A stretch of DNA of 56,713 nucleotides, filler included, from Fonticula-like sp. SCN 57-25 (taxonomy: Eukaryota), in assembly GCA_001724245.1 (NCBI GenBank). It is 3 parts of 3 records of this genome, joined end to end, with 100 filler letters (N's around TTAATTAATTAA, not from the genome) between each part and the next. Parts side by side here need not be neighbours in the genome. Positions count along the whole stretch, not along the records: positions 38,589 to 56,713 come from MEDX01000110.1; 2 more parts are not named here. One strand, written 5' to 3'. The translations under genes and the position numbers were made by a program. The notes below the pieces were generated by a model that was not told where the DNA came from, searched no databases, and was given only the letters and a program-made list of their open reading frames with translations. Below, in pieces: positions 18,333 through 56,713 of the stretch (within the stretch, counting starts at the first letter, position 1; every line of letters begins with the position of its first letter).

Positions 18333-18432
18333 NNNNNNNNNNNNNNNNNNNNNNNNNNNNNNNNNNNNNNNNNNNNTTAATTAATTAANNNNNNNNNNNN
18401 NNNNNNNNNNNNNNNNNNNNNNNNNNNNNNNN
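18333..18432. other. Artificial contig linker
   Basis: 44 N + TTAATTAATTAA (stops in all six frames) + 44 N; the genes on both sides are truncated. Confidence 0.98.
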
Positions 18433-32751: not shown

Positions 32752-34654
32752 ATGGCGGGTGGGGTGATGAAGGCGCTCCTGCTGAGTGCCGTCGTCATGT
32801 GCGCGGTGGCGTCTACTATGGAGGTTTCCTCTGCTTTCAAGCCGAAGGGTGACTGCGGCTTCGTTGACGAGACTGTGGACTCTCCTCGTCTTCGGTACGC
32901 GCGCCCGTCAGGCGGCCCTCCTGGAATACTAATTTGTGCCGTTGTACCAGTCGCTACTTCAACCTTATTGATCAAGACCGCGACGGCCGCGTTTCGGTCG
33001 ACGACCTGTACAATTTTGTTTCGTACCTCGGCGATGAGTACATTGACCCGAACGGCCTCGTTGCTGCCATTGGCGCAGTGGACAAGGATGGCGATGAGCA
33101 GATGTCGTGGGGCGAGTTCACGTCGTCCTTTTGCCGCCTGATGGATGCGCGCCTCGATGAGGAGCACGCTGCTGCCGTGCCCGAGCAGGTCCATCTTTCG
33201 CTCACCACTGACACCTCGTGCGTCGTCGCCATCTGGGTCACCTTTGAGTCGACCAACTCGTCGGTGGTTCAGATCGGCACCGCGCCCGGAGAGTACTCGA
33301 GCTCCGCTTCGGGCATCGAGTACACGTACAACTCGGGCGTCACCGGATGGGAGGGCTTCCTCCACAAGGTGGAGATTTGCTCGCTGGCCCCTGAAACCTA
33401 CTACTACTACCGCGTCGGTGACGAGTCGCTCGACATCTGGAGCAAGGAGTTCAACTTCCACACCGCCCCCGTGCCTGGGTACCTTGCTCTCATGTTTTTA
33501 TGCGGTTTTTTTAAGCTTTTTGTATTAGCAACCCGTCGCGCCCCATGCGCTACCTTCTCTTTGGCGATATGGGTACGCGCCGCCCCCAACTCGGCCAAGC
33601 GCCCCCTGTCAGATTTTAACCGTTCATATACTCGTGTAGGTACCTTCATGCCGTTTGGTATGTTTGTGACCGAGGGCATTGCCGCGTGGCACGAGCACAC
33701 TCCGTTTGACATGACGCTTCATCTCGGCGACATTTCATGTACGGACCGAGCCATGTTGTACCATGTTCTCTTTTCTCACACTTGCTCTCTCCTGCGCAGA
33801 CGCAGGAACCGGTTCGGATCGCGAATGGCAGGTCGTCTGGGACATCTACGGCCGCCAGACCGAGGTGTTTGCGGCCTACTACCCGTACATGACCACCATG
33901 GGCAACCACGAAAAGGTGCGTGCTTATTGTCTGACCCATCCTCTCTTTCTCTCCGCTAACGCTGCACCCAGTACGACAACTTCACCGCCTACAAGGCCCG
34001 CTTTGATATGCCTGGCGACGAGGAAGGCGGCGTCGACAACTTTTACTTTTCGTTTGACTATGGCCTCGTGCACTTTGTCTCGCTCTGCAGCGAGGACTAT
34101 GCGTACCAGTACGCCGAGGGCAGCCCGCAGTGGAACTGGGCCCGCGCCGATCTCGAGAAGGCCGTCGCCAACCGCCACAACGTTCCGTGGATCGTCGTCT
34201 CGGGCCACCGCCCGATGTACGGCACCTCCAACACCGGCTGGTGGGAGGGCATTCGCCTCGGTACGCCGCCGCTTTGATGTTCTTTTATGTGCTAACCGCT
34301 GCGGTACGCATAGCCTGGGAGCCCTTCCTGAAGGAGTTTAACGTTGATCTCTTCCTCGCCGGCCACGTACACGTGTACGAGCGCACGCTTCCCGTGTATG
34401 ACAACGTGGTCTACAACGACTACGAGGACCGCAGCGTGTACGTCAACCCCTCCGCCCCTGTCCACGTTACCATCGGAACAGCCGGTGCTGCGATCGTTGA
34501 CCTGTGGGAAATCGAGCCCGACTGGCTTGCCTTCCGCCAGCGCTCGTACGGCTTTGGGTACATGGACGTCCACAACGCGACCGCGCTCACGATGCACTTT
34601 GTCTGCAACGCCGCGTCCGGTATCTCGGACACGTTCACCATCATCAAGGAGTAA
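32752..34654 (+). CDS. Secreted purple acid phosphatase with N-terminal EF-hand pair
   Basis: Signal peptide; EF loops DQDRDGRVSVDD and DKDGDEQMSWGE; FN3-like PEQVHLS domain; GDMG, GDISY, GNHE, VSGHRP and GHVH metal motifs. Confidence 0.9.
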
Positions 34655-38488: not shown

Positions 38489-38588
38489 NNNNNNNNNNNN
38501 NNNNNNNNNNNNNNNNNNNNNNNNNNNNNNNNTTAATTAATTAANNNNNNNNNNNNNNNNNNNNNNNNNNNNNNNNNNNNNNNNNNNN
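38489..38588. other. Artificial contig linker
   Basis: Identical 44N-TTAATTAATTAA-44N spacer. Confidence 0.98.
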
Positions 38589-38732
38589 CCCCTGACAAAC
38601 ACACTGAATGGGCGATACGCATTCCTGATTGGTGCGTCCATTTCCATAATTGGAAATTTTCGTCCTGACAACATGCGTCCTTTTCAATCCTTCTGCACCT
38701 AAGCCGTCGGCACAGCTAACCAGCTAACCACC

Positions 38733-40503
<1,771 letters not shown>

Positions 40504-40694
40504 GCGACCCGAAAGAGGCGCACAGCTACAACACTCAATCCCAGTACCAATGATTTCAATGTATTCTCGACTTATAGGTGGTTTGCCATTCAATAGGATA
40601 AAACGTATAATATATTATACAACAAAATGATACAAAAGGGCAAGGAAAACACGTTCTATATACAATTTTTTAAATACGTTTGTCTTGGGCTTTT

Positions 40695-41454
40695 CTAAGC
40701 GCCATAGTCGGTTTCGACGCGCTGAAGCTGACGCGCCGCCTTGGCCTGGTACGCGTGCAGGTCGGCGCCCGCAGGCGCCGCACTCGTCGCGTCGCCCCAC
40801 TGCGTTGGCGCCGTCCCGTCCTGGCTCGCCGCACTGCAATGCGTTAGTCAAAACCCTTTGCTGCATACGTGGCCGTACCGGTATGGGTTGGACGGCGGCG
40901 TCCTTGCGAGTGTTGAGAGCGTCGGATCGACCCCGAGCGATGCCGATGTCGCGTCTCGGCCGCTCAGCAAGTCACTCGCTATCAGCACTGTCAATAAGCA
41001 GCGACAGGTTCATGCGGTGACGTACGGTTAATTAGCTTTCCGGTTTTCGGCTTTTCCGCCACGTAGCTCAGGACCTTGTTCCTATGCGGCGGTCAGATAA
41101 GGAAATGACGAAGAGATGCGCGTACCTTGTTTCCAGGACACTGAATATATCGGACACCGACTGGTCCCCAGAGGGCTTCCATGTGCTTCGTGACGTTCCC
41201 TGGATCTCGAGTCTGACGTCGCCGGTGGCAGAATCGCGCACGGTGGCGGCCGCAATCGGCTGAAAGTCGGCCGACCGCGACATGACGGCGGACACCTGGT
41301 AGGTCGTGTCGAGATCGACCACAAGCGCCTCATTCATGGGTACATGCTCGGGAACCGACTCGCCCTCGTAGATAATGTGTAATGAAGCGGCTGGGAGACG
41401 CGCGTGCGTCTCGGCATCGTAGATGAACGCCGCCACAGGCACGTCCGACGGCAT
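40695..41454 (-). CDS. Atg31-like protein (4 exons)
   Basis: Three GTACG..AG introns give a continuous frame. LHIIYEGE..EALVVDLD..VSAVMSRSADFQ..RLEIQG..SVSDIFSVLETRNKVL parallels fungal Atg31 blocks. Confidence 0.55.
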
Positions 41455-41527
41455 CGCGGCAGTGATTCGTCACGTTCTGATTCACTTCTGATTCACATCT
41501 GATTTATCTGATTGCGGGCTGGCGGGC

Positions 41528-42148
41528 ATGGCGACCATCACCTTTGTGACGGGCAATGAGAACAAGCGCCTCGAGGTGGCGGCGATCCTCGGCGACTCCG
41601 TCCCGGTGGTGAGCCGCAAGATTGACCTCCCCGAGCTGCAGGGCGATCCGGCCGAGATCAGCAAGGAAAAGTGTCGCCTCGCCTTTGAGGAGGTCAAGGG
41701 TCCTGTGCTCGTCGAGGACACTAGCCTCTGCTTCAATGCCATGAACGGCCTTCCTGGCCCCTACATGTACGTCATTGGTGTTTCTTGGTTTATTTTTGCG
41801 TATATTATCCTCTTTTTTGTCTAACAATCTCACAGCAAGTGGTTCCTTGAGGGCGTCGGCCACGAGGGCCTGAACAAGATGCTGCAGGGCTTTGGCGACT
41901 ACTCGGCCAAGGCCGTGTGCACGTTTGCGTACAAGGCGTCGGCCGACAGCCCCGTGCTGCTCTTTGTGGGCGAGACGCCCGGCCGCATCGTGATGCCGCG
42001 CGGGCCAAAGGACTTTGGCTGGGATCCGATCTTTGAGGTCGACGGGTTCGGCCAGACGTACGCCGAGATGGACAAGGCCGTCAAGAACGGCATCTCGCAC
42101 CGCGCGCGCGCCCTCGCCGCCTTGAAGGCGCATTTTGAAAAGTCATAA
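41528..42148 (+). CDS. ITPA: Inosine triphosphate pyrophosphatase (Ham1)
   Basis: [45 protein letters not shown]; 1 intron. Confidence 0.97.
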
Positions 42149-42310
42149 GCATATAATATCAATATAAAGCAAAAAGTTTTTTAAAGGCCAAAAAGGTGGT
42201 CATTGGCAATCTGACAGATACGTTTCATCTATCAATGGTAAAATGCACGACATGGCCAAAATATAAAGTGTATCTATGATTGTATTGAAAACAGTCAACA
42301 AAGCAACCGC

Positions 42311-44333
42311 CTAGTGGTGGAAGAGGCGGAGATCGGTGTGGATGTACGTCATGCCGTACGCATCCGCAGTCTCGATCACCTGCTTGTCCTGCACCGATCC
42401 CGACGGCGCAAGGATAAACTGCACGCCGCTCTTGTTGGCGCGGTGCACATTGTCGCTGAAGGGGAAGAACGCGTCCGAGCTGAGCGCGACACCCTTGAGC
42501 TGCGCGCTCCACGCTGCGCGCTCCTCCTTGGAGAGCGGCTCCGGCACGACGGCAAAGAGCGCCTCCCACGCGGCGCGCTCGGCGCCCTCGCCGACCTGGT
42601 CGGTCACAAAGAGGTCGATCGCGTTGGAGCGATCGGCGCGCTTGACGCCCTCCTTAAAGGCGAGGCCAACGACGCGCGGGTGGTGGCGGAACCACCAGTT
42701 GTCGGCCTTTTCGCCGGCGAGGCGCGTGCAGTGGATGCGCGACTGCTGACCGGCACCGAGGCCGACCGTCTGGCCGTTCTTGGCGTAGCAGACCGAGTTG
42801 GACTGGGTGAACTTGAGCGCGATCGTCGCGACGATGAGGTCGCGCGCGGCGTCGGCCGGCAGCGTCTTGCTGGCCGACACGACATTGGCGAGCAGCGACG
42901 AGTCGACGCGGCGGTTGTTGCGGAGCTGCTGGAGCGACACGCCAAACACCTCGCGCGTCTCGATGGCCGGCGGCTCATAGGCAGCGTCCACCTGCAGCAC
43001 AGTGTACTTGCCGCCCTTCTTGGCGGCGAGCAGGGCGAGCGCGGCGGCGTCAAAGCCGGGGGCGATGACACCGTCAGATACCTCGCGGGCAATGATGCGG
43101 GCAGTGGCCTCGTCGCAGACCTCGCTGAGGGCGATCCAGTCGCCAAAGGACGACATGCGGTCGGCGCCGCGGGCGCGCGCGTAGGCGGTCGCGAGCGGGG
43201 TGAGCTCGCCGAGGTCCTCAACAAAGTAGACCTTCTTCTCCTCGGCGGTGAGCGGGACGGCGATGGCGGCGCCGGCGGGCGAGACGTGCTTGAAGGAGGC
43301 GGCGGCGGCGAGGCCAGTGGCTTCCTTGAGCTCGCGGACGAGCTGCCACGAGTTGAGAGCGTCGAGCATGTTGATGAAGCCGGGGGCGCCGTTCAGAACT
43401 GAGGGAAATGGTTAGAAATGAAGGAGAAGTGAGAATAGAATACGAGTGCAAAGTATAACATCATGCACACAATGATATTACATGGACAACATTACACGAA
43501 CAAGATATTACAACAACACTGCAACTAAAACAATAAATGTACCCTTGATGGGGAGGTCGCCGTTGCGGACAAACATCTGGGCGGGCTTCTGGTGAGGGTT
43601 CATGCCGTAGCGGACGGTGAGCTGGCTCTTGCCGGCGCTGTACTGCTTGCGGAAGTAGTCCGAGATGGCCTCGTCGTAGCCGGCAGTGTGCACAAAGGCC
43701 TTGAGGGCAAGCTCCTGGCGGAGCGCGGGCGTCGTGGCGCCGTTGGCGGCGACCTCGGCGGCGACGCGCGCATAGTCGGAGGGATCGCACACGATCGTCA
43801 CGCGCTCGTGGTTCTTGGCGGCGGCGCGGAGAAGCGTAACACCACCAATGTCGACCTCCTCGACGGCCTGGGCAATCGTCACGTCGGGCTGGGCGACCGT
43901 CTTCTGGAAGGGGTACAGGTTGCAGACGACATAGTCGATCATGTCGTACTTGCGCGCGGCCATGTCGGCGTTGTCGGACGGGATGTCGCGGGCAAGGATG
44001 CCGCCATGGACAGCGGGGTGGAGCGTCTTGACGCGGCCACCGAGCATCTCGGGCGCGTTCGTGATATCAGCAACATCACTAGAATGGGGCGAGTTAGAAG
44101 GCGCAATGCAAGCGAGAAGCATGCGCACCGGACGGGGAGGCCGGCATCGCGGAGCTGCTTTGCAGTGCCACCGCTGGCAACGATGCCAACACCAGCCGCA
44201 TGCAGCGACTTGGCAAAGTCAATAAGACCGGACTTGTCCGAAACGGACAAAAGGGCTACATAGCGTCTCGTTAGCGCACAAATAAGGGAATGAAGCGCGC
44301 GGAGGCGGCGGCATGCGTACCGAGCTTCGTCAT
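42311..44333 (-). CDS. ATIC: AICAR transformylase/IMP cyclohydrolase (PurH; Ade16/17)
   Basis: [74 protein letters not shown]; 3 introns. Confidence 0.98.
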
Positions 44334-44354
44334 GGCGACCAGGGCGTGGGGCGG

Positions 44355-44360
44355 CACGTG
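44355..44360. promoter_or_regulatory. CACGTG E-box in the ATIC/COMMD5 divergent promoter
   Basis: Exact CACGTG in a 108-bp intergenic region; function inferred. Confidence 0.35.
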
Positions 44361-44441
44361 GAACTGTGGCAGGCCTGTAGCGATCCACAGGGATGTTACA
44401 GTGCTGTTGATTGCTGTTGCCTGGCCTGTGTGTGTTGCAGG

Positions 44442-45122
44442 ATGGACCGCGTCCTGTATTTCGGGTCGCGCATGCCGCACGAGGTTGCGCGCGCGCTCCC
44501 GCTTCTACACAGCGCGGACAAGCAGGCCACCCGCACGCTTCTTCAGTATGTTTTGTCGCATCTCCAGGTCGAGATCGAGGACGATCAGGCGCTCCAGGCG
44601 ACGCGGCCGGCCGACATCTCGGCCGAGACATGGAGCACAATGTTTAGCGGCCTTCTCGTGCTGCTCGTGTCGGCATTCCGCCAGCCGGGCCTCAAGACGA
44701 CCGTGCTCCAGGAGGACTTGAAAGAGCTCAAGCTCAGCCCCGAATTTATCTCTGACTTTGTCAAGGCATGGGACCCAATGTGCGTCTTTCGCGTCTTTTA
44801 CCGGCAGCAACCCCTCAACTGACCATCTCGTTTCTTTCTTTTTCATAGGCGTGAGCGCTTGACGGCTGTGCTTGCGAGCGACGTCGTTGCGCTCCCTCGC
44901 CTGGAGGACTTTCGCTGGCGCGTGGATGTCGGCATCTCGACATCTGCCGTATCGCAGGTCCTCAAGCCGACAGTGCACTTTCAGTTCACGACATCGGACG
45001 GCAACATTGTGCAGTTTGAGGTCCCGCTCGCCCAGTTCCACCGCCTGCGCTACAGCGTTGCGCACCTGCTCAAGGACTCGGACGCCATCAAGCACAAGAA
45101 CATTTTCAAGATCAAGGACTAG
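44442..45122 (+). CDS. COMMD5: COMM domain protein 5
   Basis: [10 protein letters not shown]-terminus; [39 protein letters not shown]; 1 intron. Confidence 0.85.
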
Positions 45123-45678
45123 AGATGGCGAGGTCGCAATGTATTAGACTTTTTTTTTTCTCGCTTCCTTTTCCTGTTTCTATTATCTTGTTGTTATCTT
45201 CTTAATCCAATGCCGTGCGAGAATGTGATATTCACCGTGTGAAGGGGGGCGGGGTAGCGGACACGAATTTCTTGATTGAAGTGGACTGTGGTTACACTCG
45301 GCGCATGGGTGGACTACGTAAAGACATACATCACCAAATATCTACATTGTGCTTTTAAAGTACTGCTGTATGTTGTAATAGGGATAGTGATAGACTACGC
45401 TGTAAGACTGTCTGGTGTACCGTACATAAAAGGTCTATTTTACACATTTTGTAAGTTTGTGTTGACCAATCAAATGCGTTGTTAGGACCAATCAAAATTG
45501 CGATGTACGCACTTGCTGGACAAATCGGTTGTGGCCTGGTGGTGGGTACACGATGTCTTAACCAGCGGCTGGTCCGGAGCCGGAACCAACACTTAAGGAT
45601 GTGCTAAATGTTGCGAGACGTGAGATGAGGGAGCTTCGAGGCGCGTCTTACGCTCGAGTTTTCTCTGTGCATGATTAA

Positions 45679-46330
45679 TTGGAGTGGCTCGCCTGGCCAA
45701 AAGCAGTTGACATGAACGGAAACTCGCTGATAGGCAGCTACGTGCATACCGGCGCCGAAGAACGTGCTGTCAAGCTCGCAACGGAGGCAATGGATGGCAT
45801 CGATTCCCTGAATGTCTTGTCAGCCCTAGTCTTACCAGTTTTAAAACTACTTTTATCCGCGAAGACATTCAACGAGACACTGAAGGACCTTGGCAGATTA
45901 CGATGATGTTAGCGCTGGCGGTCGCCGTCGTCATCTCATGACAGCTCCTTTGGGGCTTATTGGCTTCACTCACAACCAGTTTGTTGGGGACGCTTTGGTT
46001 GGTACCTACTTGCTTCCCTTTTCCCGTGAGCTAGAACTGGACCTCCGTGGCGAAGTCAGGGTGAGTCGGTCCTCCTTGGAAATGGTTCTTGATATTGTTG
46101 CCCGCCAGCAACCGGGAGGCGGAAAAAATAATATGGAGACGCAGAATGAGCTGCTCCAGAGCGTGCCCGCGCTGCAGTGAAGACTTAATTTCACCGAGGC
46201 ATATTTCCTCGACGGTGCTATATACACCTCGCATCGCAACAGGTCGTGGTAAGCATACACATTTGATGAAAAAGGTCTGTGTTGGGGAGCTATGCAGACC
46301 GACATGAAGATTCAAAGCTACAGATTGCAA
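45679..46330 (+). pseudogene. Possible degraded coding relic of unknown family
   Basis: Chain of overlapping + ORFs in shifting frames with stops, lower GC and no canonical introns joining them. Confidence 0.25.
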
Positions 46331-46848
46331 TGAATGCTTATCCGATACTCGACCCCATTCTCCAGGTCAGGCAACAGAAGACGTCGTTCAAGTTGTGCCT
46401 TTTCGGAATGACTCAAGACGAAACTCCTTGCTACTGAAAAAACTGTCGGTTGTAACAACTTCGTAGGTCAGCGCGCTCAATTGGCGCGCATTTTCTCGAC
46501 CTTATTGTTGTTTCTCCAATAAGTCGACGATCTATTGTTTTCTTGTCGCCGTTTTTCTTCATTTTTTTCCCCTCTCCAATATACTTTTCATATGTCATTA
46601 TGCGTTCAGAAGAAGTTGCACAAATTACAGAATGAGAAATTTGGGACTCTTCCGGTTTGAATTCCTATTGTAGACTCCAACATTCGTGTATTTCCCGCCA
46701 TCCGTAATTTAGTTTATTTCCCGCCAAATTTGTTTCGACCGGCCTCGCAGTAACGCTGCTTTGGAAGAATGGCACCGGGCATGGCGACGAAAGGACCCTT
46801 GTTTCATGATGTCCGCGCTTGAACCTGCTTGACTTGTCTTCTTTTATT

Positions 46849-47883
46849 ATGACGTCAAGATTGCCTCATCGACCTCTGCCGTCACCTTTGGCTCACTACT
46901 CCTACCAACCTCCCATCATGAGCAGCGGGCCGATTCGCTCTTCCGAGATGAGCGACCTTACGAGCATCATGAATCCTCAGCCCTCCACCGCCGCCGTCAT
47001 GGACTCTCTCATGTCTGAAGGCAGCAGTGGCGTGTACGCCAACGGCTTTGACTCGCGCGAAAACATCATTGACCACCCGCCGCGTCGACTCGCCCCGACG
47101 CCGCCGCCGACCCGCGTGACCGCCGACGTTCCTGCTGCTGCCGCTGCCGCCGCTACTGCGCCACCGCTCGCCGACTCTGTCTTGCTTGAACCGTCCGACC
47201 CGCTGTCAGAGCCCGTGCGCGGTCTTGCGGCGCTGGCGCTTCCCGAAGAAAATTTGGCGTCGATTCACGTCGGCGTCCCCTCGATCCCCGCTCTGCCACC
47301 CACGACAAGCCGCGTCCGCCACGCATCGACACTCGCCGCCAATACTGCCATTGACACGCGCACTGCCGTGGAAGTACAGGAACTCGAGAACGATCGCGCG
47401 CGCATCACGGCAAAGATCGCGCAGCTCCAGTACGAGTGGGACGTCGACCGCGTTGTCGAGCTCCAGAGCAGCGTTTCGGTGATCCTCCTGACCGTCCTCG
47501 GCATCGCGCAGGGCCCGCTCGAGACGGGCCGTTGGCTGTACCTCACGCTGCTCGTGAGCGTCATGCTGCTCATGCACGCGCTCCACGGCTGGTCGCCCGT
47601 GCTCGACGTCCTGCGCTGGTTCGGCGTCCGAACCGCCGCCGAGATCCACGAGGAGGTCGTCGCGCTAAAGGCAATGCGCGGCGACTTTGGCAATATAAAC
47701 ACGCTGTCGACGCCGAATGTGATGCGGCACAGCAGGATCGTGCCGCCGGCGCAGGCAAAGCTGCCGATCCCGGAGGAGAAAGGAAGGGAGCCGGAAATCG
47801 TGCAGGTGCCGCAGAGGGGGTCGTATGCGGAGCGCGTGCGGCCGCCTCTCGTCGAGCGCAGAGGACACGCCAAGGGATTTTAG
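46849..47883 (+). CDS. DUF2892/YgaP-like membrane protein with disordered N-terminus, no visible intron
   Basis: LPPTTSRV..EWDVDRV..HALHGWSP..GVRTAAEIHEE..ALKAMRGDF (47293-47697) matches a bacterial DUF2892-type family; start uncertain. Confidence 0.75.
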   Translation: MTSRLPHRPLPSPLAHYSYQPPIMSSGPIRSSEMSDLTSIMNPQPSTAAVMDSLMSEGSSGVYANGFDSRENIIDHPPRRLAPTPPPTRVTADVPAAAAAAATAPPLADSVLLEPSDPLSEPVRGLAALALPEENLASIHVGVPSIPALPPTTSRVRHASTLAANTAIDTRTAVEVQELENDRARITAKIAQLQYEWDVDRVVELQSSVSVILLTVLGIAQGPLETGRWLYLTLLVSVMLLMHALHGWSPVLDVLRWFGVRTAAEIHEEVVALKAMRGDFGNINTLSTPNVMRHSRIVPPAQAKLPIPEEKGREPEIVQVPQRGSYAERVRPPLVERRGHAKGF

Positions 47884-48157
47884 TGAGATCTTTGTTGAAG
47901 AAGCGCGTTTTTATGCGCAGTTTGAAATTGTATTTTCGGAATGGATTATTAGATACAAATGTGGAAGGAGCGGCTTGAATCCCTCAAGGACGCGGCCAAT
48001 ACTACTACACGAACAAATGTCGGGCCCCAGGCCACAATCGACACGCGCTACACATACACAACACATATTACACACAACACAAAGTGGTCAAGGGTAAGAC
48101 CGGCATCGACAAGAACCAACATCATCTCGAGCATCGCCGACGACATCGTTGACTCGC

Positions 48158-48510
48158 TCAATGCTGCTCGCCGTCGGAGTGCGAGGACGCGGGGAGCTCG
48201 ACCGTGGAGACGGACGCGAGCGACCCAAAGGATCCAAAGTCCATCGGCTTGGGCAGGTCGTCGTACATGAGCGCACGCGTCTTGCTCGCATCGCTGCCGC
48301 GGTGCAGATGGCCGCTCTCCTTCATCTTGCGGCTGTGCGCGTCGTCAGCAGTCGCAGCGGGCTTGACGCGCTCGCCGACGAGAACAATGTAACTCGACGC
48401 GATCGCCTCGGCTTCCTCCTCTTCCTGGCGCGAAGGGCGGCGGCTGCGGGCGGCGTCAGTTTTTGGCGGGAAAAGGCAGATGCAGCGTACCGGAAGATGT
48501 TAAACTTCAT
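48158..48510 (-). CDS. Small orphan protein, 101 aa, 2 exons
   Basis: 20-nt exon 1, 47-nt intron 48444-48490 (GTACGC..CTGAC..CAG), 286-nt exon 2: MKFNIFRRRPSRQEEEEAEAIASSYIVLVGERVK..YDDLPKPMDFGSF..GEQH*. Confidence 0.6.
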
Positions 48511-49252
48511 CTTGAAAGTGGGTCAAAGGAAAGGAAAGGGACAAGTGGGCAAAGTAGACCCGTCTGCTCTTGCTCGTGATCCCCGTGCGAGCGGAGCGGT
48601 AAAGCAATGTATGACGGGGCACTCAAAAACGCAAAGCATTCAATGCACCCCCGCCATCGCGTTCCAATGATCTGATTGGTCGAGCATGACGAAATCCATC
48701 CACGTGGCCGAATGTTGCCGCCAAGAATGCAAAACGGGTAGGGAGCGCTGGCGGGTCAGCGGGTACAAAACATACACAACAACAAACATGAGGAAAACAG
48801 GGCGAACGGGTGGCTCGAGGCGCGTGTTTATGCCGATCGGTGGGTGGTATTGGGTGCCCCTGAGTGGGGCTGTGTGTTTGGTAGGAATCATGATGAGGAA
48901 TCATGATACGTCACTCGGCATACATCCCGACAGCTCGAGGTAGGTAAGACATGGGAGTTTGGTAGTCTATGCACTTGAAGTACTGTAATTCTCCGACAAA
49001 GAGTTGCGAAATGCACTCATTGAGTTCTGATTGCTGGCTGATTCTCCACCATACGCTGTGTCATTTTTGATTTTGAGGCACCTGATGGGTGGCGATGGTC
49101 CTGCAGCCATCTTTAAACAAACATACTTCCAAAGATTTACATGAATACCCAGCACATTACACTTATGTTGCTACATATTAAAGCGTCTTTTTATCTGTCC
49201 ATCTTTCTAGTGCAAGTGAGTTCGTCGTCGTCACTTTCCCTCCAACCACGAC

Positions 49253-49307
49253 CACGTGGATACGCCTATGTAAAATAGTTGGATCCAACTCTGGGCCTGC
49301 ACACGTG
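49253..49307. promoter_or_regulatory. ADE6 promoter module: CACGTG - 14-bp palindrome - CACGTG
   Basis: CACGTG 49253-49258, AGTTGGATCCAACT 49277-49290, CACGTG 49302-49307. Confidence 0.4.
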
Positions 49308-49319
49308 TGCGAATCGACC

Positions 49320-52300
49320 ATGGTGGCGGGGCCGTCCATGTCGGTGCTGCTCGGCGGGGTCGCCCTGTCCGATGCCAAGACTGCTCAGCTGCTCTCGCGT
49401 ATCCAGACGGCTGCGCCCGGGCTGACTGGCATCGCGTCGCAGCAGGTCTTTCTGCTTCTCCAGGCGCAGCCTGGTGCCCTCGATGCCGAGAGCGTCAGCC
49501 GCCTCGAGGCCATCCTGAGCGCAAAGCTCATGGCCGAGGGCGCTTCCGAGAAGCCGGCGGGCAAGAACGAGGCGCGTCTCGTTGTTCTCCCGCGCCCCGG
49601 TACCATTTCGCCGTGGTCGTCCAAGGCGACGGACATTCTCAAGATGTGCGGCCTTAGCGGTGCCGTCCAGCGCGTCGAGCACGGTGTGCGCTTCACCCTG
49701 ACCGGCACCGTCTCGAGCACCGAGCTCGGTGCTGTTGCCGCGCTCCTGCACGACCGCATGACACAGTCGGTTTCCACTTCGTTCCCGCCGACCGCCGCGT
49801 CCGTCTTTGGCGTCAGCCCGCGCGGCAGCGTCCGCACGGTGCCCGTCATCGCTGGCGGCCGCGACGCCCTCGTCAAGGCCAACAGCGAGTGGGGCCTTGC
49901 TCTCGCCAACGACGAGATTGACTATCTGCTCGAGGCGTACCGCGACACGCTCAAGCGCGACCCCACCGACGTCGAGCTCATGATGTTTGCCCAGGTGCGC
50001 ACATGTTATTATCTTTTTCTTTTTGCTGACGAACTTTCAGGTCAACTCTGAGCACTGCCGCCACAAGGTGTTCCGCGCGACGTGGACCATTGACGGCGAG
50101 GACCGCACGACGTCCCTTTTCGACATGATTAAGAACACGTACCGCCACAACCCCGAGGGCGTCCTCTCTGCCTACTCTGACAACGGCGCTGTTCTCGCCG
50201 CGTCGCGCGCCGGCCCTGAGGGCCCGGGCACGTGGTTCATGCCCGACCCGGCGCTCGGCGCCGAGTACACCTCGGTGCCCGACCAGGCCGAGATTGTCAT
50301 CAAGGTGGAGACGCACAACCACCCGACCGCCGTCTGCCCCTTCCCCGGCGCTGCCACCGGCTCTGGTGGCGAGATCCGCGATGAGGGTGCCGTCGGCATT
50401 GGCGCCAAGCCCAAGGCCGGTCTGTGCGGCTTTATGACTTCTCACCTTCACCTGCCCGGCCGCGCGCGCCCGTGGGAGGCCGGCGACGCCGCTTACGGCC
50501 GCCCCGCCCGCATTGCTTCTGCGCTCGATATCATGATTGACGGCCCGCTCGGTGCCGCCGCCTTCAACAACGAGTTTGGTCGCCCGAACCTGACCGGCTT
50601 TTTCCGTACCTTCTGGGAGACCGTCCCCGCTGCGTCGGCCGAGCCCGAGAACGCTGCCAGCGAGGCGCGCGGCTACCACAAGCCGATCATGCTTGCCGGT
50701 GGCCTCGGCAACATCCGCCCCAACCACGTTGCTAAGAAGGGCGCTCGCCCCGGCTCGCTTCTCTGCGTGCTCGGTGGCCCGTGCCTCCTGATTGGTCTTG
50801 GCGGCGGTGCCGCCTCGTCCGTGTCGGCGGGCGCGAGCTCTGAGGAGCTTGACTTTGCCTCTGTGCAGCGCGACAATGCCGAGATGCAGCGCCGCGCACA
50901 GGAGGTGATCAGCGCGTGCGTGCAGCTCGGCGACGCGAACCCGATCCAGATCATTCACGATGTCGGCGCCGGCGGTCTCTCGAACGCCTTCCCCGAGCTT
51001 GTCGACGATGCTCAGCTCGGCGCCACCTTTGACATTACGGCGATCCCGTGCGACGACCCGTCGCTTTCGCCGCTGCAGCTTTGGTGCAATGAGGCGCAGG
51101 AGCGCTATGTGCTCGCCGTCGCGCCCGAGGACTGGGAGCGCATCCACGCCATTGCGCAGCGCGAGCGTTGCCCGCTGACCGCTGTCGGCCGCGCGACGAC
51201 CGAGGCTCGCCTCATTCTCGCCGACCCCGCCGCGTCAGAGCGCGCCCCGATCGACGTGCCCATGTCGGTTCTGTTTGGCAAGGCGCCGCGCATGCACCGC
51301 ACGACGCAGCACCTGCCGCGCGCCGTCGTCCCCCGCCCCACCATTGACGTGTCGGTGCAGGACGCCCTTTTGCGCGTGCTCAGCTTCCCCACCGTCGCCT
51401 CAAAGTCGTTTTTGATCAGCATTGGCGACCGCTCCGTCGGCGGCCTCACTGCGCGCGACCAGATGGTCGGCCCGTGGCAGGTCCCCGTCGCCGACGTGGC
51501 CGTCACCTTTGCCGGCCACTTTGCCCACACTGGCGAGGCCATGGCCACCGGCGAGCGCACTCCGCTTGCCCTGCTGAACGCCGCCGCCTCGTCGCGCATG
51601 GCCGTCGCCGAGGCGCTGACCAACATTGCCGCGGCCGATATTGAGGGCGGCGACACCAAGACGGTGCGCCTGTCCGCCAACTGGATGGTCGCCGCGAGCC
51701 ACCCCGGCGAGGACGCGCTCCTTTACGACGCCGTGCAGGCCATCGGCATGGAAATGTGCCCCGCGCTCGACGTGGCCATCCCCGTCGGCAAGGACTCGAT
51801 GTCGATGCAGACGCGCTGGGCCGACGACGCGACCGCCAAGCCGCACGCCGTTACTGCCCCGCTTTCGCTCGTCATTACTGCCTTTGCGCCGGTCCGCGAC
51901 GCGCGCCGCACGCTCACGCCGCAGCTCCTGCGCGAGTCGTCCACCGTGCTCGTTCTTGTCGAGCCGCGCACTGCCCGCCAGTACCGCCTTTCCGGCTCGT
52001 GCCTTCTGCAGGCCTTTGGCGGCGTCGGCCCCGCTTCCGACTGCCCCGACGCCGACGACGTTGCCGGCCTCCGCGCGCTCTTCCGCGGCGTGCGCTCGCT
52101 TGCCGCCGACGGCCACATTCTCGCCTACCACGACCGCTCTGACGGCGGCCTCGCCGTGACCGTCGCCGAGATGATTTTCGCCGGCCGCGCTGGCGTTGAA
52201 ATGGACACGACCGTGCTCGGCGACGACCCCCTCGCCGTCCTCTTTGCCGAGGAAGTTGGCGCCGTTCTCCAGGTTCGCGCGTCCGACATGCCGAGCGTCG

Positions 52301-53588
52301 AGCGCGCCTTTGCCGACGTCAACATGTCTGTGATCGGCCGCGTCGTCCCCGCCCACCAGCGCCTCATTGTCACCCACAAGGGCGCCACCGTGATTGACCT
52401 GGCGCGCGCGACGATGCAGCGCTCCTGGGCCGACGTCAGCTTTGCCATCCAAGAGATGCGCGACAATGCCGCGTGCGCCGCCGAAGAGCTCGCGCTCATC
52501 GACAATGACGACGACGCCGGCATCCAGTGCGAGGTCACCTTTGACCTTTCCGCCCAAATGAGCGCCGCCAAGCTGCTCGGCGGCCGCCCGCGCGTCGCCG
52601 TCCTCCGCGAGCAGGGCGTCAACAGCCACACTGAGATGGCCGTCGCCTTCCACCGCGCCGGTTTCGCCGCCGTCGACGTCCACATGAGCGACATTCTCGC
52701 CAACCGCGTCTCGCTCGGCGACTTTAGGGGGCTCGTCGCGTGCGGCGGCTTTTCGTACGGTGACGTGCTCGGCGCGGGTGAGGGCTGGGCGCGGTCGATC
52801 CTCTTTAATGGGGGGGCGCGCAAGATGTTTAGCGAGTTTTTCAACAGGAAGGATACGTTTGCGCTGGGTGTTTGTAACGGGTGCCAGATGCTGGCGGCGC
52901 TCAAGGAGATCATTCCGGGGGCGGAGAGGTGGCCGCGCTTTGTCAAGAACAGGTGCGAGATTGGGTTGAAATTAGAGGGGTTATTGTAAGGGGTTTTTGG
53001 TGAAATTTTGATGATTTTGTGGTACTTTTTGTGTCATTTCGTGTCATTTTGTGTATCATTTTTGAACTTTTTGCATCATTTTCTGTCTCTTTTCCTCCAC
53101 TTTTCCGCCCTTTTTCTTCACTTTTCGCACTTTTTCTCACCCATTTCCACAGGAGCGACCAGTTTGAAGCGCGCTTTGTGACGCTCCGCCTCGAGTCCCA
53201 GCCCTCCGCGCACGCCTCCGTCTTCTTCTCCTCCATGGCCGGCTCGCGCATCCCCATCGCCGCCTCCCACGGCGAAGGCCGCGCCCTCTTTGCCTCCCCC
53301 GAAGACGAGGCAGCCTGCCAGGACCACGTGGCCGCTCGCTTTGTTGACAATTCCGGCGCCGTCACGCAGCACTTTCCGCTCAACTCGAACGGGTCGCCGC
53401 GCGGCGTCGCTTCGGTTACGGCGGCGGGCGGTCGCGTGACGGCCATCATGCCGCACCCGGAGCGCGTGCTGCGGATGGGCAATATGCCGTACAGGCCAGA
53501 GGTCAAGGGGGGGGTCTTGGCGGAGGACGGCAGCGATGAGAGCCCGTGGATGGCAATGTTTTACAGTGCCCGTAGGTGGGTCGGCTAA
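49320..53588 (+). CDS. ADE6: Phosphoribosylformylglycinamidine synthase (large PurL/PFAS)
   Basis: PRPGTISPWSSKATDI, NSEHCRHK, KVETHNHPTA, GGEIRDE, HDVGAGG, GKDSMSM, YHDRSDGG, GVCNGCQ, SHGEG, MPHPER; 2 introns. Confidence 0.98.
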
Positions 53589-53670
53589 GTCGAAGAAGAA
53601 GAAAAATTGTTTGAAGCAGTGTTTGAAAAACATCAATAGAAAGAGAATCATTTGATATGTGTGAATCATG

Positions 53671-53805
53671 CAAAAGTGTCATTTTGAATTAAGTACAATA
53701 GGCAAAAGTACCAGTTTGCGTCCAATAAGCATATATTTCATTTTGATATGCGTCGAATGATCAAATATTTTCATTTTGATACGCGTCCAATGGTCAAAAG
53801 TGTAC
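53671..53805. repeat. Degenerate ~32-bp minisatellite in the ADE6/ADE5,7 convergent spacer
   Basis: TTCATTTTGATAYGCGTCSAATGRTCAAA occurs twice, plus partial copies. Confidence 0.6.
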
Positions 53806-53924
53806 AATTTACAGTCTATACTATTCATCTACTTTTCCTACTATACTTTCTACTTGTGTTCACATGGATAATTATTCTATTTTCCTACTATATTACCCTC
53901 AAGACAGAGACCGTACAATCCACT

Positions 53925-56713
53925 CTAGTACTTCCACGCCGTCTCCATGTTGACAATCTCCACCTGCCTCTCCCCCTCCCCCCTCTTCACCACCTCACCA
54001 ATCACATACGCCGTCTCATTCACCTCCCGCAGCGCCGCCTGCACCGCCGCCACCTTTTCCGGCGCCGCAATCAGCACCATACCAATGCCGCAGTTGAGCG
54101 TCCGCGCCAGCTCGGCGTGAGCAACATTCCCAAGCCGACCCAGCCACGTAAACATCTCTGGCATCGGCCACGTGGCCGCATCCAGCTTCACACCCACGCT
54201 GTCATCGAGCACGCGCGGGATGTTTTCATAGAGGCCGCCGCCGGTGATGTGCGCCATGCCCTTGATGAGGCGCTGGCGCGCGAGCGGCACGAGGCTCTTT
54301 GCGTACAGCTTTGTCGGCACAAGCAGACACTCGCCAATCGTCGGCAGGCAGTTATCATTCTTTCCAAAAGTGGCGGCGTAGCCGGGCGGCGGCACAAACG
54401 GCGCGCGCGAGTGGTAGTCGAGGCCGTGCAGGTTGATAATGTGCCTCGCGAGCGAAAACCCGTTCGAGTGCAGCCCCGACGACGGCACGCCAAGCACGAC
54501 ATCCCCCACAAGTGACGGCCGCGGCAAAACATCGCCGCGCTCGACAACACCGACGGCAAACCCAGCCAAGTCATAGTCTTCGCCAGAGTACATTCCGGGC
54601 ATTTCGGCAGTTTCGCCGCCGAGAAGCGCACATCCGCTGTCGACGCAGCCCTTTGCAATGCCTTCAACGACCTTTACGGCTTGAGCGACATCAATGTGGG
54701 ACGTCGCAAAGTAGTCGAGGAAGAAGAGCGGCTCGGCGCCCTGGACGACAAGGTCGTTGACGGACATGGCGACGAGGTCGATGCCGACGGTGTGGTGAAT
54801 GTTCATGATCTGGGCGACGCGAAGTTTGGTGCCGACGCCGTCAGTGCCAGAGACGAGGATGGGGTCCTTGAAGCCGAGAGAGGGGAGGTCAAACAGACCG
54901 CCAAAGCCTAGAAAGTGGGTTAGTATATGAGGAAGACATAAAGGAAAGGTATCATGAACATATACGATAGCATACAGTAATACTGATTAGGTCATCATGA
55001 ACAGTATATGACTACAAGTACAGCATACCAATAACATATGATGACCACAAGTACAGTATAATATGAACAACTACGTCATCATCATCATCACACTCATACT
55101 CATACTCATGTTCATTTTCATACCATACTCATACTCGCACTCATACTCATATTCATGATCATATACTCATGTTCATATTCATGTTCACATCCATACTCAT
55201 ACTCATACTCATACTCATACTCACGTTCATATACTCATACTCATACTCATGTTCATGTTCATACTCATACTCATACTCATACTCATGTTCATACTCATAC
55301 TCATACTCATGTTCATGTTCATGTTCATGTTCATACTCATTATCATACTCATACTCATACCCATACTCAAACGCATACCCATACTCATGTTCATATACTC
55401 ATACTCATGATCAACATCATCAACAAATTCAACAACACCTATTCTTTTCCTACTTCCTTTCCCACTTCATCCCAAATCGTACCCCCGAGCTCCGTGTTGC
55501 TTCCCGGCCTTGCCGTCATCTTTGCCAGCGGCTTGATCAGATCCACAAAGTGGTCCCCCCTATCAACATCCACACCCGAATCGGCGTACGTGACACCCCT
55601 AACCGCCGCCGGCCGCAGCGCCCTGTGCGCAATGTCCTTGCGGAACTGCGCGCCCTCAATCGTGACCGCCGCGACGCCCTTGTACGCGTCGTCGACGGCC
55701 TCCTTGAGCGTCGCCGCGACGGCCGTGACGGCGAGCACGCGCCCGCCCGACGTCACGAGGCCCGACTCGCCCGCGGCGGTGCCCGCGTGGAAGACGGTCG
55801 CGTTGCGCGGCACCGATCCCGATTCGATCGCGATCGGCGTTCCCTTTGCGTAGTCGCCGGGGTATCCCTTTGCGGCGACGACGACGGTGACGGCGTGCAT
55901 GTCCTTGAACGCGACCTTGACAGAGTCGAGGCGGCGGTCGACGCAGGCGAGCATGATCTGCGCGAGGTCGCAGTCGTCGGCGAGCAGCGGGAGGACGACC
56001 TGCGTCTCGGGGTCGCCGAGGCGGCAGTTGAACTCGAGGACCTTGGGGCCGGCGGCGGTCACCATGATGCCGGCGTAGAGGACGCCGACGTACGGCATGC
56101 CGTCGCGGCGCAGGCCGGCGACGGTCGGCTCGAGGACGCGCGACTGGACCTGCGCGAGGAGGGCGGGCGTCGCGAGGGGGGCGGGGGCGTACGCGCCCAT
56201 GCCGCCAGTGTTGGGGCCGGCGTCGCCGTCAAAGATGCGCTTGTGGTCCTGCGCGGCGGGGAGGGGGACGACAGTGTAGCCGTCGCAAAAGGCGAGCACG
56301 CTCACTTCCTCGCCTTCGAGGAACTCTTCAATGACAACCTCGGAGCCGGCGGCGCCAAAGATCTTCTTCTCCATGATGTCGCGGAGGGCAGCCTCGGCCT
56401 CGGCGACAGAGGTCGGGAGGATCACGCCCTTGCCGGCGGCGAGGCCGCTCGCCTTGATGACGATGCGGAAGGGGGCGCTCTGGACGTAGGCGAGGGCCTG
56501 GGAAAGATCGTCAAAGACGGCGTACGCGGCGGTGGGGATCTCGTGGCGGGCCATAAAGGCCTTGGAAAAGGCCTTGGATCCCTCAAGCTGAGAGGCGCGC
56601 GCAGAGGGGCCAAAGCAAGGGATGCCCTGCTTGGCGAGATGATCAGAGATGCCATCGACCAGGGGCTGCTCGGGGCCAACAACAACAAGATCAATGCTCT
56701 GCTCGCGGCAGAA
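53925..56713 (-). CDS. ADE5,7: Bifunctional GAR synthetase/AIR synthetase (PurD-PurM); 5' end lies beyond the window
   Basis: GPEQPL, QLEGSK, KASGLAAGKGV, QDHKR, GPNTGGMG, EFNCRLGDPE, then YADSGVD, GGFGGLF, TDGVGTK, GGETAEMPG, HITGGG; stop after PurM (no PurN). Confidence 0.97.
55092..55409. repeat. Hexamer microsatellite (CATACT/CATGTT)n inside the 575-nt ADE5,7 intron (54908-55482)
   Basis: Directly visible array of roughly 50 imperfect hexamer units. Confidence 0.95.

Follow-up and report, generated by a model that had tools for sequence, protein, structure and literature searches.

Do genes for several steps of one anabolic pathway that lie close together in a eukaryotic nuclear genome form a metabolic cluster, or are they separate genes that happen to be neighbours? 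This question is raised by a stretch of 56,713 nucleotides (nt) from Fonticula-like sp. SCN 57-25 (GenBank assembly GCA_001724245.1), here called the window, in which four purine-nucleotide genes, ITPA, ATIC, ADE6 and ADE5,7, lie between positions 41528 and 56713. A preliminary description of this DNA had read them as a primary-metabolism cluster assembled in the nucleus. We found that the genes are indeed eukaryotic and not arranged as an operon, but the notion of a functional cluster was not supported: unrelated genes are interspersed among them, and no common promoter or motif was found. The locus is probably a loose neighbourhood, specific to its lineage, in which each of four purine-nucleotide genes is transcribed on its own, that is, a case of real linkage with no operon or tight co-regulated cluster.

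Identity and arrangement of the four genes

For gene finding, Pfam profiles were compared with stop-to-stop open reading frames (ORFs), after which spliced models were built; all frames are open. The profile matches and the open spliced models confirmed the four genes where they had been described, within ~15 kb:

41528-41766 and 41836-42148, + strand: ITPA/HAM1 inosine triphosphate pyrophosphatase, 183 amino acids (aa), one intron of 69 nt
44333-44321, 44255-44129, 44078-43543 and 43398-42311, - strand: ATIC (ADE16/17 type), AICAR transformylase/IMP cyclohydrolase, 587 aa
49320-49994, 50041-52952 and 53153-53588, + strand: ADE6, large-type FGAM synthase, 1340 aa, introns of 46 and 200 nt, no internal stop
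>56713-55483 and 54907-53925, - strand: ADE5,7, bifunctional GARS-AIRS, 737 aa seen, N-terminus beyond the contig end
54908-55482, - strand: intron of ADE5,7, 575 nt, within the AIRS N-domain

ITPA has a full Ham1p_like domain, matched at 41492-42145 (+) in two pieces that cover positions 1-82 and 81-185 of the 186-position profile (E 7.5e-18 and 2.5e-27) and thus run from 1 to 185 across the two exons; against PDB chains it scores 115 bits with human ITPA and ~40 bits with bacterial RdgB. ATIC is of the eukaryote type, with MGS-like IMPCH and AICARFT domains (MGS and AICARFT_IMPCHas at 42314-44643 (-), E 3.2e-53 and 1.4e-25), a length of 587 aa where ~590 aa would be expected, three introns of 65, 50 and 144 nt, and 66% identity to P0122 over residues 50-592 (tblastn). 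The predicted ADE6 protein carries, in a single chain of 1340 aa, the five Pfam families of a large-type FGAM synthase (ADE6/lgPurL), namely FGAR-AT_N, linker, PurM_N-like, AIRS_C and GATase_5 (49182-53585 (+), E down to 3.3e-78). ADE5,7 is recognised by GARS_N/A/C and AIRS/AIRS_C at 53928-56713 (-), with E down to 6.2e-85; judging from the GARS_N match, which begins at position 57 of 100, its N-terminus lacks ~55 residues. No GART domain was found in ADE5,7, and the 336 nt that separate its stop codon from that of the convergent ADE6 leave no room for one, which makes ADE5,7 the fungal-type bifunctional enzyme; its best matches are fungal bifunctional proteins of ~790 aa, with 56-63% identity. 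The four genes together contain seven spliceosomal introns, which start with GTRCG or GTACA and have a CTRAC branch site followed by YAG, a fungal-like style. Within the ADE5,7 intron lies a long hexanucleotide microsatellite (~55063-55425) of units that resemble ATGAGT/ATGAAC on the coding strand.

ITPA sanitises the nucleotide pool and stands outside the de novo pathway. Membership in purine biosynthesis, which had been ascribed to all four genes, therefore applies to ADE5,7, ADE6 and ATIC. Convergence is found in both adjacent pairs, ITPA/ATIC (162 nt between the stop codons) and ADE6/ADE5,7, as had been reported; overlooked were the COMMD-family, 344-aa and 101-aa protein genes between the pairs:

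44442-45122, + strand: COMMD-family gene, unrelated to purines (COMM_HN 2.8e-6 and COMM_domain 5.4e-17, Pfam on ORF 44286-45122)
45150-46800, no strand: stretch of lower guanine-plus-cytosine content without a recognisable gene (no Pfam match on ORFs of at least 45 aa, no Rfam match, no tRNA)
46849-47883, + strand: 344-aa protein with a weak two-helix YgaP-like/DUF2892 membrane domain (PF11127, 23.6 bits, under the curated cut-off of 25.3)
48158-48510, - strand: 101-aa protein gene with one intron (48490-48444, GTACGC...CTGAC...CAG), modelled from the sequence

The two pairs are thus separated by at least three unrelated genes and by 1.6 kb in which no gene could be recognised. The COMMD-family gene is divergent from ATIC, with ~108 nt between the start codons (the COMMD start is inferred, with start and intron read from the sequence), and the 101-aa gene is divergent from ADE6. 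The 101-aa protein has no Pfam match and ESM Atlas scores of at most 0.81, while the first ESM Atlas match of the 344-aa protein (0.88) is a lead only. In the gene-poor stretch, twice-repeated GACCAATCAAA (CCAAT-like) words occur near 45460-45500; the rest of the contig is compact.

Purine-nucleotide genes thus make up four of 7-8 consecutive genes in 15.2 kb, three of them from the de novo pathway. If a metabolic cluster is taken to be at least three non-homologous genes of one pathway near one another, ADE5,7, ADE6 and ATIC (plus ITPA) form one; if contiguity is asked for as well, they do not, as unrelated genes and the 1.6-kb stretch separate the two pairs.

Physical linkage

The window consists of three contigs of one bin, chained by artificial spacers:

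18333-18432: artificial six-frame-stop spacer, 44 N + TTAATTAATTAA + 44 N
38489-38588: artificial six-frame-stop spacer, 44 N + TTAATTAATTAA + 44 N, at the left end of the purine-gene contig

The two spacers are identical, and as they are artificial, the window has to be read as three separate contigs, and gene order across the spacers is meaningless. Proven linkage is confined to 38589-56713 (18,125 nt), a single physical contig whose right end falls within ADE5,7. The purine genes had been placed on one gap-free contig, which is accurate for these last 18.1 kb and not for the window as a whole: there are 177 N in the window and 0 in 41528-56713.

The source material is a metagenome, and the organism is an uncultured one from a bioreactor. 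The share of sampled words recovered was 0.97 in run X1 (bioreactor), 0.54 in X2 and X3, and 0.28 in X4 (aquatic). A Logan contig of X1, 13,734 nt long, agrees with 40000-51481 at every position; a second matches 51453-54260 and crosses the gap between ADE6 and ADE5,7; others match 54231-55062, 55426-56335 and 56393-56713. Depth is 12-21 throughout the purine region, and the only hole in the coverage is the microsatellite (55063-55425, skipped as a repeat). Both joins between Logan contigs (51453-51481 and 54231-54260) fall within continuous, homology-supported reading frames. Because the source sample is probably X1, these contigs offer a second assembler's view that is not independent of the assembly. 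With every junction bridged in this probable source sample, misassembly between the genes, which the preliminary description had named as a possible refutation, was not seen, and the linkage of the purine genes on 38589-56713 is physically real.

A strain ~95% identical to the window occurs across most of 40000-56713 in X4, a metagenome of aquatic origin that belongs to a different study, so the organism is not confined to the bioreactor. It is present there in contigs of <900 nt only, from which linkage in that strain cannot be judged.

Descent of the genes

Against PDB chains, ATIC scores 538 bits with 7mgq, ~510 with the chicken and human enzymes and <90 with bacterial PurH; GARS scores 452 bits with 7lvo, 405 with the human protein and at most 341 with bacterial ones; AIRS scores 366 bits with 7lvo, 355 with the human protein and at most 322 with bacterial ones. 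We take 7lvo, 7lvp and 7mgq to be Cryptococcus structures. The best matches of ATIC exon 3 are from Holomycota (65-74% identity), and in the ATIC tree the gene groups with the nucleariid Lithocolla globosa and environmental sequences (Shimodaira-Hasegawa-like approximate likelihood ratio test, SH-aLRT, 89), outside a Fungi clade supported at 95. The protein of the window's ATIC exon is recorded as P0121, encoded on a contig of 73,760 nt. In the ADE5,7 tree, the gene forms a pair with Amoeboaphelidium (94) that sits at the base of Fungi.

ADE6 needed more care. In a plain similarity search with exon 2, all named proteins among the 120 best matches are bacterial, at 56-60% identity, and against PDB the protein scores 1122 bits with Salmonella PurL and 585 with the only other large-type chain. 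An exhaustive search of representatives at 50% identity put fungal ADE6 on top, with Zopfochytrium at 58% (1118 bits); other fungal identities are 58% (Mycena), 55% (Smittium), 54% (Sporothrix) and 52% (Ogataea). Quick trees of exon 2 placed the window gene beside the fungal clade with support of 89-90. Approximately unbiased (AU) tests on these quick trees gave p values of 0.41, 0.63 and 0.80, of which 0.41 and 0.63 belong to placement with a gammaproteobacterial/myxobacterial clade, which was not rejected; because the constrained trees outscored the free search, these tests are uninformative. A careful IQ-TREE search with the full 1340 aa united the window gene, P0252 and seven fungi in one clade (ultrafast bootstrap, UFBoot, 98; SH-aLRT 99), in which the window ADE6 is the first branch. 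P0252, its nearest relative outside Fungi, is encoded on an ENA contig of 598,566 nt. The fungal clade adjoins the short-branched large PurL of gammaproteobacteria and myxobacteria, which is why bacterial proteins top the plain similarity search (1207 vs 1118 bits). A bacterial transfer of ADE6, which the similarity scores had prompted us to consider, was dropped on the strength of this tree.

The gene trees, a check that the preliminary description had called for, thus place ADE6, ATIC and ADE5,7 with or beside Fungi, and its account of the genes as eukaryote-type, intron-bearing and of mixed orientation is borne out by PDB scores, trees, the seven introns and the strands. By sequence comparison, all four genes are of eukaryotic descent and inherited vertically within Holomycota, so the grouping is not a transferred operon. 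From the single-gene trees, the organism may provisionally be placed near the base of Fungi, as a nucleariid- or aphelid-like holomycotan.

Chance and conservation of the grouping

For the purpose of estimating chance linkage, genes were placed at random in Monte Carlo simulations with assumed genome sizes of 6000, 10000 and 15000 genes. At least three of eight core de novo loci fell within eight consecutive genes with probabilities of 2.6e-4, 1.0e-4 and 4.9e-5, respectively, and any adjacent pair among the eight arose with 1.4e-2, 8.4e-3 and 5.6e-3. For at least four of 20 purine-nucleotide genes within eight genes, the values were 3.3e-5, 9.8e-6 and 1e-6. The comparison of linkage with chance that had been proposed for this locus, run here as random placement, therefore found the grouping unlikely by chance for a single genome (5e-5 to 3e-4 for three of eight loci within eight genes). 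A look-elsewhere effect applies to these figures: the locus came to notice in a very large scan, where a grouping from any other pathway would have qualified too. Under a permissive definition, the mean number of metabolic "clusters" per fungal genome is 16.7, and nucleotide metabolism is over-represented among clustered genes in some fungal lineages (PMC4256263).

Conservation was approached through fungi and through metagenomes. ATIC and ADE5,7 lie on differently sized contigs in all 25 fungal species that could be matched by name, with both contigs at least 100 kb long in 17 of the 25; in Smittium angustum, the one species compared for the other pair, ADE6 is on a contig of 125,280 nt and ADE5,7 on one of 26,250 nt. 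For crown Fungi, this bears indirectly on the synteny comparison that had been suggested. A metagenome scan with the GARS exon yielded 598 matched stretches, 576 of which encode relatives, mostly bacterial (best match 57% identical), and 80 loci were inspected. GARS is directly followed by AIRS in four of the 80 (L001, L004, L009 and L016), with a long flank in L001 only. L001 is a eukaryotic contig of 9192 nt on which an intron-less fused GARS-AIRS (55% identical) is followed by genes for a GHMP kinase, a proteasome subunit, Vps55 and Fes1; no ADE6, ATIC or ITPA was found within 7 kb of its GARS-AIRS. The window's own contig was absent from the GARS-exon scan, and an exact 45-nt word from the window end had 0 matches in genome contigs. 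A scan of genome contigs with ATIC kept 80 loci (L081-L160), all bacterial and none on a eukaryotic contig. These hold homologues of the AICARFT half with 56-62% identity, in metagenome-assembled genomes of Oscillospiraceae/Clostridia and Chloroflexota.

Regulation and the favoured explanation

We looked for signs of shared regulation in the three purine-gene promoters that are available. TGACTC, the Bas1/Gcn4-type site of the yeast purine regulon, occurs 0 times in them (21 observed vs 27 expected in the whole window), no 9-mer is common to all three, and the four 7-mers that are common to all three are near the ~one expected by chance. The DNA that the purine genes have in common within each pair is 3' intergenic and not a promoter, and their divergent partners are non-purine genes, namely the COMMD-family gene and the 101-aa gene. 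Nor is there any sign of joint transcription on the contig, as strands are mixed, every gene has introns and the purine genes stand tail to tail.

We propose that these are four independent genes of RNA polymerase II, each with introns and a promoter of its own, and that they encode ordinary, intact predicted enzymes: ADE5,7 would catalyse steps 2 and 5, ADE6 step 4 and ATIC steps 9-10, and ITPA would clean up ITP, dITP and XTP to the monophosphates. Inherited vertically, they would have been brought together by nuclear rearrangement in a compact genome (~2.4 kb per gene). Separate transcription and origin by rearrangement both fit the arrangement; any regulatory meaning is likely to be small or nil, and a functional gain, for example through a common chromatin domain, would be weak at most. 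For now, the locus ranks as a curiosity rather than as an established metabolic cluster.

Several observations weigh against the view of a loose neighbourhood. For a single genome, the grouping is unlikely under random placement (5e-5 to 3e-4), and this low chance, together with the fact that ADE6 and ADE5,7 act in consecutive steps (4 and 5), makes selection for linkage a live alternative. The apparent non-linkage in fungi is indirect, as it compares contig sizes and could be confounded by several assemblies per species, and the comparison of 25 species covers ATIC with ADE5,7 only, in crown Fungi and not in close relatives. Finally, the contig ends within ADE5,7, and further ADE genes may follow.

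Alternative explanations

The first alternative is a selected primary-metabolism cluster, in which linkage would have been favoured either so that the genes are co-regulated in one chromatin domain or so that consecutive steps are inherited together, and which may continue past the contig end. The low chance probability for one genome, the immediate adjacency of two genes for consecutive steps and the density of four purine-nucleotide genes among 7-8 consecutive genes all speak for it, and eukaryotic precedents for nucleotide-pathway clusters exist in the trypanosomatid de novo pyrimidine cluster (PMC5803862) and the yeast DAL cluster (PMC2776167). Nevertheless, we consider such a cluster rather unlikely: unrelated genes are interspersed, no shared promoter and no motif common to the three available promoters was found, no linkage was found in the indirectly checked fungi or in L001, a look-elsewhere effect applies, and ITPA was counted as a pathway member post hoc. 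Taken further, the contig could be the edge of an adaptively assembled de novo purine supercluster, with more ADE genes past 56713 in one chromatin domain, co-regulated in spite of their mixed orientation. We hold this extended version to be improbable; if true, it would be without precedent as a cluster of the anabolic purine pathway formed in a eukaryote nucleus from genes inherited vertically.

Two explanations remain. That the locus is what is left of a bacterial pur operon acquired by horizontal transfer, with introns gained later, is suggested by ADE6, through the bacterial proteins among its 120 best exon 2 matches, its Salmonella PurL score (1122 vs 585 bits) and the exon 2 AU tests that left a bacterial placement standing (p 0.41 and 0.63). 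The full-length ADE6 nonetheless falls into the 98/99 clade with fungal ADE6, and fungal ADE6 as a whole is equally close to those bacteria (52-58% identity). The idea is contradicted for three genes, as ATIC, GARS, AIRS and ITPA are clearly eukaryote-type, and orientation, the seven introns and gene order differ from those of the bacterial operons compared, so that we give it almost no credence. Here the preliminary description, which had argued against a transferred operon, was right, as both the ADE6 tree and the score of <90 bits between ATIC and bacterial PurH attest. An assembly or binning artefact that joined pieces of different organisms or loci is likewise very improbable. It might be suspected because artificial spacers chain three contigs in the window, because the DNA comes from a metagenome, and because the Logan graph is interrupted at 51453-51481 and 54231-54260, points that are crossed by bacterial k-mers of high depth. 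However, neither spacer falls in the purine region, one Logan contig reaches from ITPA to mid-ADE6 and another from mid-ADE6 to mid-ADE5,7, both breaks fall within uninterrupted frames supported by homology, and depth is even and intron style the same throughout.

Other features of the window

Elsewhere in the window, positions 1-40,600 hold genes for an RRM protein, a P5-ATPase, NOL10, MTR4, YchF, EMC1, a GH38 mannosidase, cytochrome b561, phosphatases, a kinase and UDP-glucose pyrophosphorylase; no further purine families were found there (Pfam, 257 ORFs), and Rfam families and tRNAs number 0 each in the whole window. One ORF at 32868-34651 (+) encodes a purple acid phosphatase (Pur_ac_phosph_N, Metallophos_C) with an apparent N-terminal EF-hand pair, a combination that looks unusual.

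Comparison with known systems

Primary anabolic housekeeping clusters are rare in eukaryotes, and their causes are debated, with co-regulation, co-inheritance and the avoidance of harmful intermediates all under discussion. Pathway clustering in eukaryotes was reportedly treated by Lee and Sonnhammer in 2003. The closest parallel among purine genes is the vertebrate PPAT-PAICS (GPAT-AIRC) pair, said to have been described by Brayton in 1994 and by Gavalas and Zalkin in 1995. As in the window, two genes of de novo purine synthesis lie directly side by side in the nuclear DNA of a eukaryote; however, PPAT and PAICS are divergent and use one bidirectional promoter, whereas both purine pairs of the window are convergent. 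The divergent arrangements of the window join ATIC with the COMMD-family gene and ADE6 with the 101-aa gene, so that no purine pair is arranged in the manner of PPAT-PAICS. Pathway genes can also be fused, as in fungal ADE5,7, the trifunctional GART of animals and ATIC. Linkage of purine steps reaches its extreme in such fusions, to which ADE5,7 and ATIC, two of the window's four genes, themselves belong; stoichiometric co-expression follows from fusion, while the mere proximity of ADE6 and ADE5,7 does not give it.

Bacterial pur operons group the same enzyme families as the window. They are indeed operons, as had been stated: in the loci compared the genes are co-directional, intron-less and bacterial-type, with the order purM..purH-purD in many of the 80 metagenome loci, unlike the window. 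Two eukaryotic systems offer a different comparison. The trypanosomatid de novo pyrimidine cluster (pyr1-pyr3-pyr6/5-pyr2-pyr4), like the window, brings together genes for nucleotide anabolism in the nucleus of a protist, but it is complete for its pathway, is conserved from genus to genus and lies in polycistronic transcription units (PMC5803862), whereas the window has three of ~eight loci, on mixed strands, with unrelated genes interspersed. The yeast DAL cluster for allantoin/purine catabolism was, like the grouping favoured here, assembled by relocation in the nucleus and not by transfer; it consists of six contiguous co-regulated catabolic genes whose assembly is traceable across species (PMC2776167), whereas the window concerns an anabolic pathway and non-contiguous genes.

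In literature coverage that is incomplete and hence no proof of novelty, we found no de novo purine gene neighbourhood described beyond vertebrate PPAT-PAICS, and no linked de novo purine genes described in fungi or their relatives. The four Enzyme Commission numbers had 0 matches in 12 of the 14 supplements of PMC4256263, and a cluster list elsewhere could still name purine pairs.

At present the neighbourhood stands on one contig from one metagenome, and its value is as a pointer to the genomes of nucleariids and aphelids. If the grouping proved to be conserved or co-regulated, it would provide a clean case of nuclear, non-transfer assembly of a primary-metabolism cluster in a lineage next to Fungi.

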